Shown: positions 11,144-64,000 of the stretch, piece by piece
Numbering within the stretch: the first letter of the stretch is position 1
Layout of the letters: each line of letters begins with the position of its first letter
Assembly: GCA_963674825.1 (NCBI GenBank)
Contig: OY771587.1
Location: 128,001-192,000 of the forward strand
DNA from: Candidatus Cloacimonadales bacterium
GTDB lineage: Bacteria > Cloacimonadota > Cloacimonadia > Cloacimonadales > JAIOQZ01
DNA length: 64,000 nt
Direction: 5' to 3'
Translations under genes and position numbers: made by a program
Notes under the pieces: generated by a model
Database searches by the model: none
Seen by the model: the letters and a program-made list of their open reading frames with translations, nothing else
What the model was told of the DNA's origin: nothing

Positions 11144-11233
11144 ATGAAATCACCTTCAGAATGTTGATTTTATGGATTATTGACGAGAATTGGGATAGAA
11201 TTGCCAAGCTGGGGCTTGGCGCTCCAAGGGGAA
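11144..11233. repeat. REP/BIME-like intergenic repeat cluster (modules A and C)
   Basis: 11144..11175 is a variant of AAGAAATCATCTTCCGAATGTTGATTTCATG (61717..61747); 11197..11233 matches the reverse complement of 56990..57026 at 36/37 nt. Confidence 0.8.
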
Positions 11234-52658: not shown

Positions 52659-54621
52659 ATGGAAAAAGTTACGTTTCTTCCAACCAATGATTTAGCAAGA
52701 GGATACTACCTTGAGATTTTATATAAAGTAGTCACAGAATTCGACAAGAAGAAGTCTCGACGTACTATAAATGATTTTATTGAGATGCATCATATTGTTC
52801 AATACATGAATGAAAATGTTTTTCTCCTCAAATGGACCGATAGTGAGAAAGATATCATTCGAAGAAAAGCAAAAATTTTCCCAGCGATGATCTGTAAATA
52901 CTTCAAGAGTATTAGGTTTCGACAAATAGGAAGACTCTACAAAAAGACGTTGAACGAATATCGGTATGATTTTTGGTTCTTAATGGATAAATATGAGTGT
53001 TTTAATAACATTCCAGAGAAATACTTCCTACGCTATTTGCTTAGATACCAACCAAGATTACTCGACATATTATCACATAAGAAGCTTGTTAGACACTTCG
53101 ATCATGCCTTAAGGAGTTACTTAATTGTTTCAATGGAGACTGCAGAAAAGCTAATTGAGCGGTTTGCATTTGTTAATCATGGCAATCTCTATTTCCCTGC
53201 CTGTCTCACAATTCAAGACAAAGAAAATATTATCCAGAAATACATTATATCAAAGAAAGCAAGCTCAAACTATACTAGTGCAATTGAAAGCATCAGGAAT
53301 TGTTCTAAAGAACTTGAGATATCAGATAAAACACGCCTTGCTGCCAAAAAACGATCTATCCAATTGAATAATGACCTTTTCTCCAAGTCGCAGGTGATAT
53401 CTAATAAAATACGAGTATTGTTTCAAGAACAAGAGATAGAAGTCCATACAAGAAATGAAGGACTGAACCACACCTATTCTTACAGTACGAGCTGGATAGT
53501 TAATCATCTAGACTTCGAAACCCTTTTTAAATAATTTCATCCATTTATTCAACTTCGCTGACTTACAGATGAGGATATCACTTGTGAATAACCCGATTGA
53601 ACCTGGATTATTCCGATACTTACTTCCTCAAGGTAGTACAACGTATAATACAGGATTATCATATCAATACGTAGACCGACTTTCATCCCATCAATTCTAT
53701 CTATATTATAACATCCTTAGAGATTGCAACATTGCTACCGAAGATATGATCGAATGGTTTTTTACTCAATATCTCCCACGCGAGTTTGGAGCTAACGGAT
53801 TTCGTATTATTATGCCTTCATCAAATTCTCGATATTTTGAAAAATGCAGAACCGTTTTACCTGAAATTGAAAGTATATTGAAGCAATTTAATCTATATAT
53901 TAATGATGGCAAGATCGACCATGAATTAATGCAAATAGCATCAAATCCACTTCCTCTGAGCCACTGCTCAAGTTTCCTGCAAAATAAATACATATATCCC
54001 AATACTGATGAAAGCCAAGAATACCGAAATGTAGTCCATCTTCTTTTCTCAGACCAATGCATGCTCAAATACCTAAAACGCGCGAAAAGGAATTATAGAC
54101 ATTTTACAGAATTAATACTGTCTGAGACTGTCAGATACAACGACTACTCCGACTATCTACATAGTAGCTTGGACTGGTTGCAAAGGCATGGCTACATTGC
54201 ACTCCGTAACGATTCGCTATGCTTTTCCAACATAAATCAAGTACAAGTATTGTTTGATCTACACAAGAATCAGACAATAAATTACTGGCGATGCTCTCCT
54301 CAACTTCGCACAGAAATTGACAAACTCATCCAGAAAAGATTGCTGAAAGCTGGAAATAGTCTATTCTCAGCACCAGAACAAGATTACTTTGACTATCACT
54401 TAAATAGAAGAACTTTTAGCAATTCCTTGGACTTGAGAAACAAGTACTTGCACGGCACACAGCCTGATCCCGAAGACGACAAACAACATGAAGCCAACTA
54501 TATGATCATCTTGAAGCTATTGATTCTTATCATTATCAAAATTAACGATGAATTTTGCTTACATGATGATAAAAAAAAAGGAAATCCTTCTCACCCATAT
54601 ATGACATTACCATATGAATAG
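52659..54621 (+). pseudogene. AT-rich gene of about 650 aa split by a +1 frameshift (ORFs 52659..53534 and 53569..54621); C-terminal RxxxxH HEPN-like motif
   Basis: Removing one T from the T5 run at 53524..53528 joins both ORFs (…ETLLNNFIHLFNFADLQMRISL…); DLRNKYLHG near the C-terminus. Confidence 0.65.
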
Positions 54622-56843: not shown

Positions 56844-57096
56844 CATGGAACGCGGACGTCCCCGTCCGCCTCCACATCTCCATCAACCTTCCACGATCCA
56901 TGAAATCAACATTCGGAAGATGATTTCTTGAAGAAAAGGGCAGGCACAGGGACCTGCCCCTACAGCGCACCCGGTACTCCGGGTCTTCTTTCCCCTTGGA
57001 TCGCCAAGCCCCAGCTTGGCAATTCTCCATGAAATCAACATTCGGAAGATGATTTCTTGAAGAAAAGGGCAGACACAGTGGTCTGCCCCCTACAGC
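56844..57096. repeat. REP/BIME-like composite cluster (modules D, A+B, C, A+B)
   Basis: About 70-bp direct repeat at 56897..56966 and 57026..57096, each ending in a GGGCAG..CTGCCC(C)CTAC hairpin (GTAG-type on the minus strand); other modules recur at 11.1-11.2 kb and 61.7-61.8 kb. Confidence 0.85.
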
Positions 57097-57220: not shown

Positions 57221-58849
57221 ATGGCTTACAGAGTTTTAGCAAGAAAGTACAGACCGCAGCGCTTCGAAGATGTCTATGCACAGGAGCATATCACCCGTAC
57301 GCTGTCCAACGCGATCAACCTCAATCGCATCGCGCACGCATACCTGTTTACAGGACCGCGCGGCGTCGGGAAAACCTCCATGGCACGTATCTTCTCAAAA
57401 AGCCTCAACTGCGTGCACGGACCGACTCCCGAGCCCTGCAACGTCTGCGACAACTGCGTCGAGATCACCGCTGGGACATCCTCGGATGTGATCGAGATCG
57501 ACGGCGCTTCCAACACCAGCGTGGAGGATGTCCGCGACTTGCAACGCGAGCTGATGTACGCCACCTCGAAATCAAAGTACAAGATTTATATCATCGACGA
57601 AGTCCACATGCTCTCTAAAAGCGCATTCAACGCGCTGCTCAAGACGCTCGAGGAACCACCCGAGAACGTGATTTTCATCTTCGCGACCACCGAGCCACAC
57701 AAGATTCTGCCTACCATCATCTCGAGATGCCAGCGCTACGATTGCCGCCGTATTCCGGTGGAAGACATCGTCAAGCAGATGCAATCCATCGCCGATTCGG
57801 AGGAAATATCGTTCGACGAGGATGCGCTCTATACCGTTGCACGAAAAGCGGATGGTTCCATGCGTGACGCGCTTTCGCTGATGGACCAGGTCATTTCCTA
57901 CGGCAGCCAGGAAATCACCGGCGAGCTGGTACAATCCATCTTCGGCATTCTTCCCGCAGAAACTTACATCGAGATGCTCGATCACGTTCAGAAGCGTGAC
58001 TCGACCGGCCTGCTGGTCAAGCTTCGCCAGATTCTGGACAGCGGAAACGACCTGCAGGAATTCCTCAACGGCTACCTCGACACCCTGCGCAACCTGCTTC
58101 TGCTCAAGGTCGGTGTCGACCTTCACGAACTCCCCGCAAGTATCATCAATGAGCTCAAGCTCCGTTCGCAGCAGTTCACAGAAAACGACCTGCTCTACAT
58201 GATTTCGCTGCTCATAAAGGCAAAGACCGACGCCCGGTTCGGAAGCGATCCCGTGCTACTCACCGAGATGGTCTTCATCAAGCTGACGCGCATCTCCGAA
58301 ATCCAGTCGCTGGACACGATGATCGAGATGCTGAACAAGCAACCGGTGGAAAGCCGCCAGGAGACCGAGGCATTCTCCGGCATCCAGAAAGAAATCCTGC
58401 ACTACACCCGAGACCGCGAGACCGAAAAGATCGTTCAGGAAGTGAAGAAGCAAAAACCTGAGGTAGAGAACCTCGATCTGGCATACGTTCAGGGCAGATG
58501 GGAAGACTTCATCAAGAAACTGCAACGCGAAAAGTTACAATTATCCGCAATCTACCTGCAAGAAGGCAAGATCCTCACCGTTCGCGACAATCTGATTGAA
58601 GTGGAGCTGAAGAGCCCTACCGCGATGTCGTCCATGCAGCGCAACCTGGAAGATATTCAGGCATGCGCGCAGAAGCACTTCGGGATCAAGCCGCGATTCA
58701 AATTCACCGTCTGCGAACCGGAGCAGGAGCAATACATCTTGAACCCAACACTCGAGCAGATTCGTGAAGAGACACCCGAGCTCGCCGAATTCATCGAGAT
58801 GACCAAGTCAAAAGTCGAATCCCGCACGCCAACGAAACTGAACCAATGA
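57221..58849 (+). CDS. dnaX: DNA polymerase III subunit gamma/tau
   Basis: LARKYRP, GPRGVGKT, Zn motif, IIDEVHML, LLKTLEEPP, SRCQ, GSMRDAL. Confidence 0.97.
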   Translation: MAYRVLARKYRPQRFEDVYAQEHITRTLSNAINLNRIAHAYLFTGPRGVGKTSMARIFSKSLNCVHGPTPEPCNVCDNCVEITAGTSSDVIEIDGASNTSVEDVRDLQRELMYATSKSKYKIYIIDEVHMLSKSAFNALLKTLEEPPENVIFIFATTEPHKILPTIISRCQRYDCRRIPVEDIVKQMQSIADSEEISFDEDALYTVARKADGSMRDALSLMDQVISYGSQEITGELVQSIFGILPAETYIEMLDHVQKRDSTGLLVKLRQILDSGNDLQEFLNGYLDTLRNLLLLKVGVDLHELPASIINELKLRSQQFTENDLLYMISLLIKAKTDARFGSDPVLLTEMVFIKLTRISEIQSLDTMIEMLNKQPVESRQETEAFSGIQKEILHYTRDRETEKIVQEVKKQKPEVENLDLAYVQGRWEDFIKKLQREKLQLSAIYLQEGKILTVRDNLIEVELKSPTAMSSMQRNLEDIQACAQKHFGIKPRFKFTVCEPEQEQYILNPTLEQIREETPELAEFIEMTKSKVESRTPTKLNQ

Positions 58850-59940
58850 TCCTCGCTTATGCTCTGACCGGCTTTTATTGCCTGCTGCTGCTATTCCTGA
58901 CCATCGGTGTGCTGCTCCATCGCAAGCCAAACTGGCATCCACACCGCACCATCAGCGTTATCGTTGCCGCGCGTAACGAAGAGAAAAGCCTGCCACAACT
59001 GCTCGAAGCCCTCGCCAAACAGGATTATCCAGCCGATCACTTCGAGATCGTTCTGGCAGACGACCGCTCCACCGACGGGACATGGCAGATCATGCAGGAT
59101 TTCTGCGAATCTCATCAGCATGTCATTGCCCTACAAGTCCTCGAAACCGACGACGGCCATCCAGGCAAGAAACGAGCCCTCGCCAGAGCCATCGAAGCAT
59201 CTTCCGGTCACATCCTGGCCTTTACCGACGCCGACTGCCGACCCGGGCCCAACTGGCTTACCGAGATCGACCGGCACATCACCGAAAAAATCGACTTCGT
59301 AGCTGGCTACTCCCCGCTGATTACTGCTTCGGGAACTATCATCGATGGACTGAAAAACCTTGAGCGCGCATCCATCTTCGCCGTCACATCCGGCAGTCTC
59401 GGCTGGAACTGGGGCCTGACCTGCACCGCACGCAACATGGCCTATACACGTGAGCTGTACGACAGCGCGGACGGCTTCAGCGGAATCGATCATATCCGTT
59501 CCGGCGACGACGACCTCATGCTGCAAAAGCTTCATCACTTCTCGAAAGGCATGCGCTTTATCTTCTCACAGGATTCCATTGTGCCCTCTTACGAAAACGA
59601 CGATGTTGCCACGCAGATCAACCGCGAAACACGACGAGCCTCGAAATGGCGTTACTACCCGGCGTCCCTGAAGATCATCACCCTGCTGGTCATGCTCTTC
59701 TATCTCTGCCTGGCGTGCTGCCTCACTGGCGCGATCATCCATCTCGTCAGTTGGCCCGTCTTCCTGAGCATACTGGCCGCGAAGATATGCAGCGAATTCC
59801 TGATCCTCCTGACCTTCCTGATCCGCATGAAGCGGACACCCCTACTCCTGTGGTTCCCGCTCGCGGAAACCCTCTACGTACCCTACTTCATTTACTTCGG
59901 AATACGCGGCACCTTCGGCGCGTATCGCTGGAAGAGCTAA
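58846..59940 (+). CDS. glycosyltransferase family 2, membrane-bound
   Basis: SVIVAARNEE, DDRSTD, GKKRAL, FTDADC, SGDDDL, RRASKW; N- and C-terminal TM. Confidence 0.92.
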   Translation: MILAYALTGFYCLLLLFLTIGVLLHRKPNWHPHRTISVIVAARNEEKSLPQLLEALAKQDYPADHFEIVLADDRSTDGTWQIMQDFCESHQHVIALQVLETDDGHPGKKRALARAIEASSGHILAFTDADCRPGPNWLTEIDRHITEKIDFVAGYSPLITASGTIIDGLKNLERASIFAVTSGSLGWNWGLTCTARNMAYTRELYDSADGFSGIDHIRSGDDDLMLQKLHHFSKGMRFIFSQDSIVPSYENDDVATQINRETRRASKWRYYPASLKIITLLVMLFYLCLACCLTGAIIHLVSWPVFLSILAAKICSEFLILLTFLIRMKRTPLLLWFPLAETLYVPYFIYFGIRGTFGAYRWKS

Positions 59941-60008: not shown

Positions 60009-60036
60009 TTGACATCGCTTTCATTTTCCGTACATT
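60009..60036 (+). promoter_or_regulatory. sigma70-type promoter upstream of terS
   Basis: TTGACA-16 nt-TACATT, then GGAGG RBS and ATG at 60055. Confidence 0.55.
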
Positions 60037-60054
60037 CAGTCGCGGAGGGTGACT

Positions 60055-60480
60055 ATGTCAGAAAAGAAAACCGTACGGTACAATCCAAAGCTCCATCCGC
60101 ACATGATCTATATCTACAGAAAGCAGGGGTGCGATCAGAAGGAACTGGCGGAGATGCTCGGGATTGAGATCAAGCAATTGAACGGGTGGCTCAAGCGTTA
60201 TCCAGAAGCAAAACAGGCATATCGTATCGAACCAGGAGAGATGGATCGGATCATCCAGCAAGCGCTGATGAAGATGGTGGACGGATATGAAAAGAAAGAG
60301 ACCGTCGAGACCTACAAGAAGAACAAAGACGGTGAAGAGGAGCTTGTCGAGCGCAAGGTAACTACGCGGCACGTGGAGGGTAATCCGGCCGCGCTGAAAC
60401 TGTGGCTGGAGAAGTTCTTGAAGAATAATGAAGATGACGACGAAAGCGCCGATTATGAGGACAAGGAGTTTCTGGATTGA
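60055..60480 (+). CDS. phage terminase small subunit-like HTH protein
   Basis: HTH QKELAEMLGIEIKQLNGWLKRYPE; ALMKMVDGYEKKE...VTTRHVEGNPAALKLWL; stop overlaps terL start. Confidence 0.75.
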   Translation: MSEKKTVRYNPKLHPHMIYIYRKQGCDQKELAEMLGIEIKQLNGWLKRYPEAKQAYRIEPGEMDRIIQQALMKMVDGYEKKETVETYKKNKDGEEELVERKVTTRHVEGNPAALKLWLEKFLKNNEDDDESADYEDKEFLD

Positions 60481-61712
60481 TTCTGAAGCTGCGGCGTAGC
60501 GACTACCTCCCACATCAGTGGGAGTTCCTGACCAGCGAAAATCCATTCAAAGCGCTGGTGAGCGGCTTCGGTGGCGGGAAGACCCATGTCTTCCTGCGTG
60601 AAACGCTCCTGAACCACCTGTTTATGAAAAACAAGCAGGGAAAATCCAACGGCTGGATCGTCTATCCCACCTACGCGCTTGCGGAAGAACTCTTCTGCGA
60701 GCCGTTCAAGGAGCTCCTGGACAAACAGCGGATCAAATACGATTACAAAGCGACCCGCCTGAAGTTCGAGAGCAGATTCGGCACGATCAGGGTTTACCAA
60801 CTGCAAACGCCGCAGCGCATGGTCGGCACAGAGCTGACCTACATCGGCTTCGATGAATTCGACATCGGCAGCTACAAAAACTGCGAGATGGCCTACCGGA
60901 AAGCGATTGGCCGTCTGCGGGGCTGTGAAAACGCCAAACTGTATATTGTAACCACGCCGGAAGGCTTCCACTACACACACAAGCTCTTCGTTGAGGAAGG
61001 GGCCGATAAACATCTGATCAAGGCGAAAACAACTGATAATCCCCACCTTCCGGCGAGTTACATCCACTATCTTAAAAGCCAGTACGACGCCGTCCTGCTC
61101 AGGCGGTATATGGACGGTGAATTCGTGAACTTGAACACAGCGCAGGCGTATTACAGCTTTGATCGTGAGCGCCACACGGGAAATCCCGAGATCACAAGCG
61201 CGCAGGAGTACTACGTCGGCATGGACTTCAATATCGATCCCATGACAGCCATCATCGGCGTCATGCAGGGGGAAAAATTCGTCATCCTGGACGAGTTCTG
61301 GCTCAAGAACAGCAACACCGAGCGAATGTGCCAGGTGATAGCGCAGAAGTACGCCCCCCGCAAGGTGGTCGTATATCCAGATATGACCGGCATCAAACGC
61401 TCCACGAGTGCTGCGGTGGGCATCACCGACATCAAGATATTGAAAGCGCAAGGCTTCCAGGTTAAGGCCACGCGCAATCCACTGGTTCGCGACCGCATCA
61501 ACGCAGTCAACAACTCGCTGGCAAAGAATAATCTGCTCATTGCGCAGCATTGCAAGCACCTGATTCGCGATCTCGAGCAGGTCTGCCGCGACAGCCACGG
61601 AGAACTCGACAAATCGAACCCGGATCTCACCCACATCTCCGATGCGATGGGCTACGCGGTGTGGAACCTCTTCCCCATCGTCAGTCAACCGGACTGGAGG
61701 ACCTCAGCATGA
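60477..61712 (+). CDS. phage terminase large subunit
   Basis: LPHQ, Walker A GFGGGKT, Walker B IGFDE, TTPEG, DNPHL, nuclease GMDFN and HISDAMGY. Confidence 0.92.
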   Translation: MILKLRRSDYLPHQWEFLTSENPFKALVSGFGGGKTHVFLRETLLNHLFMKNKQGKSNGWIVYPTYALAEELFCEPFKELLDKQRIKYDYKATRLKFESRFGTIRVYQLQTPQRMVGTELTYIGFDEFDIGSYKNCEMAYRKAIGRLRGCENAKLYIVTTPEGFHYTHKLFVEEGADKHLIKAKTTDNPHLPASYIHYLKSQYDAVLLRRYMDGEFVNLNTAQAYYSFDRERHTGNPEITSAQEYYVGMDFNIDPMTAIIGVMQGEKFVILDEFWLKNSNTERMCQVIAQKYAPRKVVVYPDMTGIKRSTSAAVGITDIKILKAQGFQVKATRNPLVRDRINAVNNSLAKNNLLIAQHCKHLIRDLEQVCRDSHGELDKSNPDLTHISDAMGYAVWNLFPIVSQPDWRTSA

Positions 61713-61716
61713 GAAA

Positions 61717-61829
61717 AAGAAATCATCTTCCGAATGTTGATTTCATGAGGCGGTGTGTCGTCCATCGCTACGTCTCGGCAAGTCGGGCCACACGGCAAGG
61801 AGATGCGGACGTCTCGTCCGCGTTCCATG
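61717..61829. repeat. REP/BIME-like modules A and D between terL and portal
   Basis: 61717..61747 is the exact reverse complement of 56899..56929; 61805..61829 matches 56844..56869 (GCGGACG/CGTCCGC stem) in reverse. Confidence 0.85.
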
Positions 61830-61900
61830 AGGGAAGTGCGACCGCCGGAACCTTTCTCAACTCGTAACTCGTAACATATAAGTTATTTAAGGAGGGTAAA

Positions 61901-63274
61901 ATGGAAACCATGATCAGAAACATGCAGGCGGTGGCTCGCTGGAATGAGGATATCCAGCGTCGTCTGCGCATCCAGAAATATCTGGATTATTACCGCAACC
62001 GGTGCGGAAATTACATCGCGGAGCGGATTGACGGGATGGTCGATACCGAGGAGGCCAAAGAGCTCAAGAAGTATATCGAGCACGACAACATCACTGAGCG
62101 TTTCATCGAGGAGATCAGCCTGGTGTTCGCAGAAAAGGTACGAATCACCGCGCGACGTCAGCAATCCGATGGACAGCTCGTTAATGACACCGACGCCCAG
62201 AAGCAGCTCGACCGGCTTTTGCGGCTCTCAAGATTCCAAGTAACCATGAAAGAAGTGGAGCGGCTCAGCAAGCTCATCTTCGATGTGGCGGTGTTACCGC
62301 AGGTTCGCGATGGCAAAATTGAGCTGGATATCATCACCGGCGACAAGGCATTTGTAGTACAGCAGGAGAAGAATCCGCTCATGGCTGAGCAATTCTACTA
62401 TCAGGTGGGAGTCCGGGAAAACACCGCACTTGCGGACCGCGTGGATGTATACCACTACTGGACATCCGAAGGCCGAAAATACCAATGCGAAATCATGCTC
62501 AACGGTCGTCCCGACCCGCAGAGCGTCCAGCACCTGAATCACATTCCTTACGATCACATGCCGGTCATCATGTTCCGCAGCTATCTGCCCATCGACGCAT
62601 TCTGGTACGACGGCGAGAACGCGATCGTAGAAAAGAATATCGCCATCGATCTCAAACGCACCGACCTCGCCATGGCGGAGGCATACAACATCCCACAGCT
62701 CCTAACCACAGGCACACGCGAGAATCAGGACCTCAAAAAAGGCCGCACCTTCAAGATCGATATCCCGCGCAACGACATGGGAGAGGCTGTCGGCGACGCT
62801 AAGTACCTTGCTCCAAAGGAGCCGCTCGAGGAGCTTAACGAGATGATCCTGAGCCGCATCGAGCAACTTGGATTGTCGAAGGGGCTCTCACGCTCGATGA
62901 TTACCGGAGCAAACGCATCTTCGGGGTACGAACTTGCGCTTTCGAAGTATGAGATTGTGGAGCGTAACCGCAGGCAGCGCGATTACTATTATGATTCGGT
63001 GGTGGAGCTGGTGCAGACGATGATCGTTACCGCCAACCGAGGACTTGGTTGGGAAATCCCGGAAGACCTGGTTCTGGGTGTCGATTTCGGCGAGATTCGC
63101 TTTGCAGTCTCTGACGAAGAGCGCGAAAAGACACGCCAGATGAAACTGGAAAATGGAACGGTATCGCGCATTGACCTGATGATGGAAGATAATCCGGAGC
63201 TTGATCGCCAAACGGCAATCGAAGAAGCGAAACGGATCGACGGAGAGAATTGGAAGTTCAGCGCGGTAAGTTGA
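61901..63274 (+). CDS. phage portal protein (SPP1 gp6-like)
   Basis: Follows terL; 457 aa; YLDYYRN, HDNITERFIE, NHIPYDHMPVIMF, NASSGYEL, VDFGE, EEAKRIDGE. Confidence 0.8.
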   Translation: METMIRNMQAVARWNEDIQRRLRIQKYLDYYRNRCGNYIAERIDGMVDTEEAKELKKYIEHDNITERFIEEISLVFAEKVRITARRQQSDGQLVNDTDAQKQLDRLLRLSRFQVTMKEVERLSKLIFDVAVLPQVRDGKIELDIITGDKAFVVQQEKNPLMAEQFYYQVGVRENTALADRVDVYHYWTSEGRKYQCEIMLNGRPDPQSVQHLNHIPYDHMPVIMFRSYLPIDAFWYDGENAIVEKNIAIDLKRTDLAMAEAYNIPQLLTTGTRENQDLKKGRTFKIDIPRNDMGEAVGDAKYLAPKEPLEELNEMILSRIEQLGLSKGLSRSMITGANASSGYELALSKYEIVERNRRQRDYYYDSVVELVQTMIVTANRGLGWEIPEDLVLGVDFGEIRFAVSDEEREKTRQMKLENGTVSRIDLMMEDNPELDRQTAIEEAKRIDGENWKFSAVS

Positions 63275-64000
63275 CCATTACATCACCATATCCGTAATAT
63301 TGCTCGGACTCTTCCACTATGTAATAAATGACGCGCAGCAATTCGCCTGCTTCGGCATCGACGCCGGTCACAGAAACATTGTGGAAACCGGTAACAAGTT
63401 GGCTGTTCATGATCTCATGGACAACCTCGCCGTCTTGATCGACCAGAATCATGATGACACGTGCCGGAGCATTAATCGAAAAGCTGATGGTGAAGGAATC
63501 CTGGAAGCTATTCGGATAGGCTGGATAAACCCTTGGATACCCGGACGGATTCTGGTCCGTGCCGACTTCAATCGACGCGGGACCTGTTCTCTCCGGGTTT
63601 TCTTCATCCACTGAATAAGCGAGTAACCAGTAGTAATAGGTGAAGCCTTCCATCAAGTTTTCGTCGATATAGCGATAGGGACATGGCGTTGCCTGGTTTT
63701 CGGAAGCGATTATTTCTGATGTTATCCGATGGGATGATTCGAACTCCGGTTTTATGCTGCGATTCAAATGGTAACCGAGCATATCAACTTCATAGGTTGT
63801 CGTCCATTCCACAGCGAAATAGTCTTCGGATAGCGCCGTGACGCTGAAAGTATCGATATATGCATAACGATCGGGGCTAACAGGTACCACGCCTGACATG
63901 GTAGTCATGCGCCAGTCGAGGGTATCGACAGGAGTCTGGGGATCGCCGAAATCGTCGGTCTTGGTGTAGTAATAAAAATCACCAATATAAGCCTGGAAGT
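63258..64000 (-). CDS. hypothetical exported protein (5' end beyond the window) with a domain shared with the C-terminus of 6582..11078
   Basis: Frame is open to the window edge (FQAYIGDFYYYTKTDDFGDP…); WTTTYEVDMLGYHLNR…YYYWL parallels WVTESETDMLGYNLYR…YFYWL; YPAYPNSF. Confidence 0.75.
   Translation of the reverse strand, partial: FQAYIGDFYYYTKTDDFGDPQTPVDTLDWRMTTMSGVVPVSPDRYAYIDTFSVTALSEDYFAVEWTTTYEVDMLGYHLNRSIKPEFESSHRITSEIIASENQATPCPYRYIDENLMEGFTYYYWLLAYSVDEENPERTGPASIEVGTDQNPSGYPRVYPAYPNSFQDSFTISFSINAPARVIMILVDQDGEVVHEIMNSQLVTGFHNVSVTGVDAEAGELLRVIYYIVEESEQYYGYGDVMVNLPR

Follow-up and report, generated by a model that had tools for sequence, protein, structure and literature searches.

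The gene transfer agent (GTA) RcGTA has a single head-tail cluster that contains its terminase, portal, and capsid genes, and PBSX is confined to one locus, which includes a repressor, and has a killing tail of the contractile type. Satellites like the phage-inducible chromosomal islands (PICIs) possess their own integrase and primase, are tail-less, and are mobile; tailocins consist of tail genes without head or packaging genes. As far as the particle is described in the available text of PMC7296036, RcGTA has a tape measure of ∼216 residues, five tube rings, and a 49-nm tail, and it ejects its DNA into the periplasm, after which competence-type uptake follows; "tail completion" goes unmentioned for RcGTA in that portion of the source. 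FpGTA of Faecalibacterium illustrates, in the part of PMC12946183 devoted to it, that a divided kit can form DNA-filled particles. Here, we analyzed a terS-terL-portal gene trio situated near the end of a 64,000-nucleotide stretch (the window) of a Candidatus Cloacimonadales genome, G000 (single contig C1, OY771587.1, 3.89 Mb, 99.6% complete; window, C1:128,001-192,000), whose close homologs in databases bear the name Candidatus Cloacimonetes. The trio and a distant head-tail operon very probably constitute a domesticated kit that is phage-derived, vertically inherited, and host-maintained. On balance, we favor the reading, drawn from gene content, that the trio is the DNA-packaging half of this two-locus kit and that the product would be a GTA-like particle, from which we infer transfer of host DNA.

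The three genes lie on the forward strand of the window. terS (60055..60480, 141 amino acids [aa]) matches the terminase small subunit family PHROG 309 (E 9e-15), and its product comprises an N-terminal three-helix helix-turn-helix (HTH), a helix/beta-hairpin core, and an acidic tail. terL (60477..61712, 411 aa) starts at a TTG codon overlapping the terS stop, is the sole PHROG 2 match in the genome (E 1e-39), scores above cut-off with Pfam Terminase_6N and 6C, and combines an ATPase with an RNase H-like nuclease. The portal gene (61901..63274, 457 aa) matches PHROG 533 weakly (E 7e-7); we obtained no match to the Pfam portal family and no relative when its profile was searched against solved structures. 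We held the portal assignment despite the weak match because of the position of the gene between terL and MuF/scaffold in related phages and because two of its homologs have a precomputed PF05133 match. As the preliminary description of this DNA had reported, the trio is intact: all three frames are open and match their families, each in one copy in G000, and TerL retains its Walker, TTPEG, and nuclease motifs (SGFGGGKT, GFDEFD, TTPEG, GMDFN, YPDMTG, and HISDA), which are common to G001, G003, and G011 with small changes. TerL is 90% identical to that of G003, 83% to that of G001, and 57% to that of G006. Its nearest cultured matches, ∼35% identical, are Salmonella phage LSPA1 and its kin, which we take to be headful packagers. 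RcGTA-like TerLs cluster with headful viruses, according to the available text of PMC7947584.

The trio had been called an orphan, which is true within the window; genome-wide, we found the missing head-tail genes at C1:2,506,186-2,516,619. They came to light through G004 and G007, where the portal ortholog adjoins genes homologous to the 2.51-Mb region of G000. This 10.4-kb operon encodes a scaffold, a capsid, a short tail, and a lysin, and lies 2.31 Mb from the trio along the contig or, assuming a circular chromosome, 1.56 Mb by the shorter arc. A scaffold-like protein (weak matches) is followed by a GP7-type capsid (Pfam GP7, E 1e-23, the sole GP7 match in G000; PHROG 212), whose closest solved structures are 3J4U and 3J40 (capsid family PF20911), presumably those of BPP-1 and epsilon15. 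Then come cement-like (151 aa), adaptor-like (245 aa), and terminator-like (150 aa) proteins, the tail tube (PHROG 290; Pfam Phage_tube_2 below cut-off), two chaperone-like open reading frames (ORFs), a 361-aa tape measure, hub-like (607 aa) and distal-tail-like (149 aa) proteins of the tail tip, a fiber-like protein (299 aa), and, at the end, a 58-aa protein and an M15 peptidase lysin. The labels cement, adaptor, terminator, chaperone, hub, and distal tail derive from position and general knowledge, without family matches. In a low-confidence model, the hub protein has an N-terminal ConA/LamG-like domain, a beta-sandwich and the one part of the model that we interpreted (mean predicted local distance difference test score [pLDDT] of 44 beyond residue 290). 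The operon contains no terminase, portal, or integrase gene, no sheath, toxin, or immunity gene was seen in it, and no match to the prohead-protease family was obtained. The presence of capsid and tail genes elsewhere in the genome supports the multilocus, GTA-like, host-maintained reading put forward in the preliminary description.

We then looked into the distribution of the kit in 232 Cloacimonadota genomes, eight of which (four genera, g1 to g4) form the family f1; G004 and G007 represent g2, G006 represents g4, and G011 is a relative from a sister family. The capsid gene was present in 8/8 f1 genomes and in 2/224 other Cloacimonadota (G011 and G135), hence 10/232 in the phylum. The f1 capsids are 65 to 95% identical and single copy, except for a 34%-identical copy in a Mu-like prophage of G004. 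The portal profile matched 6/8 f1 genomes, with one copy each, and 5/224 others, two of them marginally. The two f1 assemblies without a portal match are G002 (90% complete) and G005 (81% complete); in G002, the ortholog of the right-flank gene of the trio was not found either (best match 28%, versus 53 to 54% in G001/G003). TerL of the G000 type occurs in G000, G001, G003, and G006; the TerL of G004 and G007 (475 aa) belongs to another family, PHROG 979. Head-tail gene order is kept over the extent of the contigs. Genera g1 and g4 have a split kit, whose two halves in G006 are on different contigs among host genes, and in G004/G007 the kit forms a single, permuted 12.5-kb block (scaffold-capsid-tail-holin-like-[three host-like genes]-terS-terL-portal), with a promoter-like site within the three host-like genes. 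The alternative of a trio co-opted by itself as a DNA translocase or nuclease that functions without the head-tail operon agrees with its own promoter and its separate location in g1 and g4, but portal and capsid co-occur in all 6 well-assembled family genomes, derive from one phage family, and fit within 12.5 kb end to end in G004/G007. Since the trio is maintained together with a complete head-tail operon, we give this option, which the preliminary description had entertained, almost no credence.

To evaluate selection, we computed the ratio of nonsynonymous to synonymous substitutions (dN/dS; Nei-Gojobori) for G000 against G003, G001, and G002. Against G003, dN/dS was 0.089 for terS, 0.067 for terL, 0.069 for portal, 0.037 for capsid, 0.073 for tube, 0.12 for the tape measure, and 0.34 for the fiber-like gene. 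Across pairs, the values ranged from 0.09 to 0.17 for terS, 0.07 to 0.10 for terL, and 0.07 to 0.09 for portal; the fiber-like gene was the fastest-evolving (0.27 to 0.34; identity, 44 to 46%). The element medians of 0.096, 0.098, and 0.094 (16, 15, and 13 genes versus G003, G001, and G002, respectively), far below the value of 1 that the preliminary description had named as telling against host maintenance, compare with host medians of 0.127 (42/47 genes with dS defined), 0.116 (30/48), and 0.066 (7/10). The host genes were the nonelement genes within the same fetched regions, from which 8, 6, and 5 rows were excluded as presumed antisense shadows (dN/dS of >0.6, plus one antisense frame). 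The median proportion of synonymous differences (pS) was 0.59, 0.67, and 0.63 for the element and 0.65, 0.71, and 0.60 for the other host genes, values that are near saturation. Between G004 and G007, dN/dS was 0.005 to 0.20 where defined. The dS values of this pair (L021/L022) are uneven: 0.1 to 0.6 to the left of and in the capsid gene (capsid, 0.52) and 1 to 2 over the tail and packaging genes (most other element genes) and the right-flank host genes, compared to 0.30 for rpoB, which suggests a possible regional recombination tract.

A five-gene element tree and a rpoB-rpoC-rplA-rplJ host tree shared 5/5 splits over 8 taxa, so that the proposed congruence with the species tree was borne out; with the partial genome G005, 5/6 splits were shared, and the lone conflict was weakly supported (0.67 and 0.77). 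In wider trees, built by quick search from f1, six database proteins, and 18 phage-like loci, the f1 portals and the six database proteins formed one clade (Shimodaira-Hasegawa-like approximate likelihood ratio test, 98) apart from the phage-like loci. The family members among the database proteins, at 52 to 89% portal identity, were placed without genomic context. The GC content at third codon positions (GC3) of the element was 0.57 to 0.73, compared to 0.58 ± 0.07 for the host, with TerL (0.73) at the 99th host percentile; GC3 of the Mu-like prophage was 0.66 to 0.88, and 8/12 of its genes reached at least 0.80. A codon-usage likelihood score did not separate the element from Mu-like genes; GC3 alone did. 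We also found no att-like repeats around either locus (the longest flank word shared around the trio is 8 nt) and no integrase, repressor, or replication gene at either locus of G000, whose three tyrosine recombinases all lie at least 124 kb from either locus (the nearest at ∼124 kb), in keeping with the absence of integrase and att repeat noted earlier.

These data bear on whether the genes are an ordinary defective prophage before decay, or repeated independent insertions of related phages. Related free phages do exist, the left flank of the trio varies, G004/G007 differ in terminase and gene order, and TerL is extreme in GC3. However, every recovered frame is open, with host-level dS and dN/dS of ∼0.1; the genes are family-wide and single copy, share the loss of MuF and a short tape measure, follow the host tree, and lack an integrase and att sites; and GC3 of the element is host-like, unlike that of Mu-like genes. 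This explanation is largely refuted, and we consider it very improbable.

We found relatives of the kit in IMG/VR and metagenomes (L053, L090, L093, L106, L109, L110, and L115) and a prophage-like copy in G135. Their gene order is contiguous: terS-terL-portal-MuF-scaffold-capsid-cement-adaptor-tail completion-terminator-tube-chaperones-tape measure. Identity to these free phages is 36 to 42% for portal and up to 49% for capsid, and scans of metagenomes and viral sequences with the portal profile returned phage-like loci only, at 36 to 48% identity. The phages have the same gene families as the bacterial element but have retained MuF, tail completion, long tape measures, and early genes, and they turn up sporadically. 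The bacterial element groups in a clade of its own, and the ConA/LamG-like domain of its hub, in the low-confidence model, is a further difference. In the phages, portal is followed by MuF/gp7 (one of 7 aligned members matches Pfam at E 1e-8). Of 28 phage-like loci examined, several of them redundant records, seven built the MuF profile, and among those with at least 600 nt after portal, MuF was present in 24/24, as well as in G135, but in 0/8 f1 genomes. The tail-completion gene (PHROG 26; profile including G006 itself) was found in 1/8 f1 genomes, G006 only. The tape measure has 361 aa in g1, 317 in g2, and 319 in g4, versus 899 in L053 and 767 in G135. TerL of G004 (g2) is 59% identical to that of L093, compared to only 43% for portal and 36% for capsid, and the g2 terminase looks to have been displaced. 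The apparent replacement of the g2 motor, rather than its loss, suggests that packaging had to be kept.

These unnamed free phages are probably the ancestral stock of the element. The simplest history would be that a phage became fixed with a break at muF, between portal and scaffold, that the early region was then lost, giving the permuted order still seen in G004/G007, and that the two halves later separated. Such a history would account together for the loss of muF, the promoter before scaffold, and the g2 order.

Each half is predicted to sit behind its own conserved sigma-70-like promoter. The site before terS (TTGACA-16-TACATT, 60009..60036, forward strand) follows a pattern that in a single genome is not above chance (3 found versus 3.6 in shuffles) and that has 87 intergenic sites in G000; the same arrangement recurs before terS in G001, G003, and G006, and the promoter-like site itself is present as first described from the letters alone. 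Before scaffold, TTGACA stands in 8/8 family genomes and the full pattern in 6. Among the 87 promoters, a CG before the -10 box combined with an AAA[G/T]TT tract before the -35 box, a definition made post hoc, occurs only in these two. No conserved palindrome common to both promoters was seen, and TTTTCCGTA, shared by both and unique to these two sites of G000, was rejected since it is not kept in relatives. The scaffold leader (G000 C1:2,506,230-2,506,360; L027:16230-16360) contains two conserved inverted repeats: CGGTG-N5-CACCG followed by TAAAAAATGA, the strict form of which is unique in G000, and GCTGAC-N4-CAGCG, ahead of the ribosome site. The repeats occur in six genomes of g1, g3, and g4 with a varying spacer and were not seen in g2. 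Their stems are nearly invariant, so an RNA hairpin and a DNA operator are both possible; an Rfam search of the leader gave nothing meaningful.

We propose that a regulator would turn on both operons in some cells and that portal, scaffold, and capsid would assemble into a prohead. TerS-TerL would then cut chromosomal DNA and fill heads with it, probably by headful packaging; the chromosome is the proposed substrate because there is no phage replicon to copy. A short, noncontractile tail would be added, its ConA/LamG-like hub domain and variable fiber providing binding, and the lysin would free the particles. The DNA would enter relatives, probably via the periplasm and machinery of the ComEC/DprA/ComM type, an entry route that would account for the loss of MuF and tail completion as genes of infection efficiency. 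G000 has comEC, dprA, and YifB/comM above cut-off, which is not diagnostic of delivery.

Three of the six GTA features given in the available text of PMC9662315 were found in the genomic data: caudoviricete-derived particle proteins (by genes alone, with TerS, TerL, portal, capsid, tube, and tape-measure matches); endogenization at several loci (two in G000, G001, G003, and G006, with no integrase or att site nearby); and vertical co-diversification (shared splits and host-like dS, the displaced terminase of G004/G007 being an exception). The further features are that the own genes are not all packaged, that packaged DNA is mostly random host DNA, and that it is delivered to other cells (PMC9662315). 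As to whether the own genes are too large for one head, the halves are 1.56 Mb apart in G000 yet form one 12.5-kb block in G004/G007. The element resembles RcGTA-type systems (Rhodogtaviriformidae) in its endogenous, vertical head-tail-packaging genes on several loci and its lack of replication and integration genes, and RcGTA also in its short tape measure and the presence of competence-type recipient genes. In a comparison that did not align RcGTA proteins directly, it differs from RcGTA by a GP7-type capsid with a scaffold, the lack of a prohead-protease match, the HTH of TerS, and the separation of terminase and portal from capsid. Like FpGTA and VSH-1/BhGTA of Brachyspira, it is independent, nonalphaproteobacterial, and divided, with its own lysis genes. 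According to the available text of PMC12946183, FpGTA is podovirus-like and has terS-terL-portal-scaffold-capsid in one operon and a TerS without an obvious DNA-binding domain, whereas here, compared by description, portal and scaffold are on opposite sides of the split and a tube and a tape measure belong to the tail. We propose the kit as a candidate GTA/viriform of independent origin, outside the RcGTA family. It does not resemble an active temperate prophage, which would combine an integrase, a repressor, replication genes, and att sites with a contiguous late region and for which a Mu-like prophage of G000 with transposase and repressor served as a positive control; a PICI-like capsid-forming satellite, since tail genes are present, an integrase is absent, and the genes are fixed across the family; or a tailocin, since capsid, portal, and terminase are present and strongly constrained.

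All the evidence for domestication fits equally well a particle that does not serve gene transfer, be it a DNA-filled killer like PBSX, a particle for adhesion or decoy, or a means of lysis and DNA release. Like PBSX, the element is host-kept and nonreplicating and would package host DNA, and its TerL weakly matches the PBSX-family model TIGR01547 (35 bits versus a cut-off of 105). Both ejection helpers, MuF and tail completion, were lost, the fiber-like gene evolves fastest, and PBSX itself packages but does not inject DNA (PMC12946183, in the available text). Against such a particle, the tail belongs to the noncontractile tube type and its tape measure is short. Unlike in PBSX, neither a sheath nor a repressor gene was seen, nor was a toxin or immunity gene in the operon. 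TerL, portal, and capsid are among the most constrained proteins, TerL apparently having been replaced once and not lost, which argues that DNA packaging matters. We regard a nontransfer particle as somewhat unlikely.

Several points weigh against a GTA-like particle. The main mismatch is that TerS keeps its HTH, unlike described GTAs, for which the available text of PMC11841831 gives a TerS without detectable DNA-binding domain as a trait. Purifying selection alone also holds for working phages, dS is near saturation, the capsid clade has a support of only 81 to 90, the capsid family includes ∼40-kb podophages, and the family sample is limited to 8 genomes from 4 genera. Many bacteria have competence genes. 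No lexA over cut-off and no regulator were found in G000, no clear holin was found in G000, no endolysin was seen at the G004/G007 locus, and the fiber-like gene is absent at the G001 locus. Delivery may also be poor, since loss of MuF or tail completion harms some phages: in the available texts, SPP1 gp7 is dispensable for assembly and raises infectivity ∼4-fold (PMC6316719), and without tail completion, lambda and Mu are less infective and P2, TP901-1, and SPP1 fail to assemble (PMC11784142). SOS control of the kit was rejected: the five hits were three Mu-like repressors and two other S24-type proteins, with no lexA over cut-off.

We then analyzed the HTH of TerS. An AlphaFold2 model places its helices at residues 14 to 23, 28 to 35, and 39 to 48 (pLDDT, 81 to 90), and it aligns with phage TerS; the best fold match is TerS of SF6 (3ZQQ), a weak one (E 0.019). 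Within TerS, conservation is lowest in the HTH (71% versus 94% and 49% versus 70%), with dN/dS of 0.20 to 0.22 compared to 0.03 to 0.11 for the core. The HTH thus evolves faster than the core yet is still constrained, and since two phage pairs have values of 0.18 and 0.10, a loss of TerS specificity is not demonstrated. Purifying selection on the HTH and conservation of the terS promoter region would suit a resident helper that packages mainly another element (a satellite, an island, or a Mu-like prophage) or the DNA lying downstream of a single retained pac site. The pac site of SPP1 overlaps both terS and its promoter (PMC6316719, in the available text), and G000 harbors three Mu-like loci and, at tRNA-Thr (C1:1,796,734), an island with an integrase. 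This helper role appears improbable to us: the TerS, TerL, portal, and capsid/protease that the Mu-like prophage itself encodes belong to other families, no part of the element's TerS is less conserved than the HTH, and the putative TerS of g2 (G004/G007) has no PHROG match and no HTH evident by eye. Within the GTA-like reading, a variant that we put forward as unlikely, though worth stating, is that of an independent GTA whose DNA-binding TerS would start processive packaging of the chromosome at one or a few fixed pac-like sites, amounting to lateral transduction without a prophage, frozen by the muF break, with a shortened, lectin-tipped tail that would hand DNA to the competence machinery.

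Around the trio, the terL-portal gap (61713-61900) contains a 31-bp imperfect inverted repeat (61717..61747), identical at 56899-56929 and 57028-57058 and with a 23/25 match to 11146-11170, so that the copies seen earlier at 11.1 and 56.9 kb are joined by one at 57.0 kb. We consider it a passenger from outside the element, one of about 15 to 19 dispersed copies of a family like the repetitive extragenic palindromes in G000 (15 at ≤3 mismatches). The gap measures 12 to 18 bp without the repeat in G001, G004, G006, and G007 and 164 bp in G003. Because the repeat is a dispersed host sequence and the gap is short in four relatives, it says little about age. On the right, a convergent host gene for an exported protein or lipoprotein (63258..64000, reverse strand, 285 aa, running beyond the window end) overlaps the portal end with its stop at 63258, as described before. 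This junction recurs in G001 and G003, where the convergent protein is 53 to 54% identical, and public contigs from two runs of one sample, possibly the source sample, cover 61718-64000 without difference; there is therefore no misassembly at 63.27 kb. A MORN-repeat gene follows the convergent gene, and a MORN homolog lies on the portal side in G006; the right flank is kept in g1, and the MORN gene is also present in g4. On the left, host dnaX and GT2 glycosyltransferase genes (57221..59940, forward strand; Pfam) adjoin the trio in this genome only. dnaX lies ∼0.9 to 1 Mb from the trio in G001 and G003; the synteny with dnaX-GT2 proposed for testing thus failed, and only the right flank is conserved. 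Further left, two ORFs of low GC content (0.35; 52659-54621; 291 and 350 aa) have no Pfam match and may be one split gene or a defense island; at the corresponding position, G003 has a pair of methyltransferase-like genes.

Just upstream of their head-tail operon, G000, G002, and G003 have two tandem 133-aa genes with a pilin-like hydrophobic N terminus and no family match (L027:14786-15807; G000 C1:2,504,785-2,505,806); in G001, a YifB/ComM gene diverges from the operon instead. At the other end of the operon, the lysin has been exchanged: G006 (L046:10716-11787) has a GH108 lysozyme and a holin-like ORF in place of the M15 peptidase of g1 (G000 L028:7019-7620), and a 54- to 58-aa protein before the lysin is common to both. 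In G011, locus L047 (G011:C328) has two tandem tail-tube genes, and a methyltransferase-like gene precedes terS on another short contig; the G011 copy could be either a prophage or a fixture. The Mu-like prophage of G000 at C1:2,869,000-2,902,500 (GC, ∼0.6) encodes a transposase, a repressor, a terminase, a portal, and an 887-aa tape measure of its own and is interrupted by a ∼10-kb block of low GC content with host-like genes. Of the other Mu-like loci (∼990,500-1,025,200 and 3,775,500-3,779,500), the second copy is 87 to 91% identical and the third is partial, with the early region. A link of the kit to these prophages was rejected, as the gene families differ. The tRNA-Thr integrase island (C1:1,796,734-1,824,400) ends, by eye, in apparent type I-E cas genes and a CRISPR array.

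Few GTA lineages are genetically defined, and the kit would add a complete, family-wide candidate in a phylum without one found: in the open-access literature (titles and abstract starts), we found no paper on a Cloacimonadota gene transfer agent, and a look-up of the capsid sequence turned up nothing resembling it. Distant GTAs are not findable by homology, as the available text of a review states (PMC11841831). With free-phage relatives at hand, the steps of domestication become readable, from the disappearance of MuF and tail completion and the shortening of the tape measure to the permutation and splitting of the genes and the exchange of the terminase. The retained HTH of TerS, in turn, makes it testable whether a packaging motor must lose its DNA-binding domain to serve its host.

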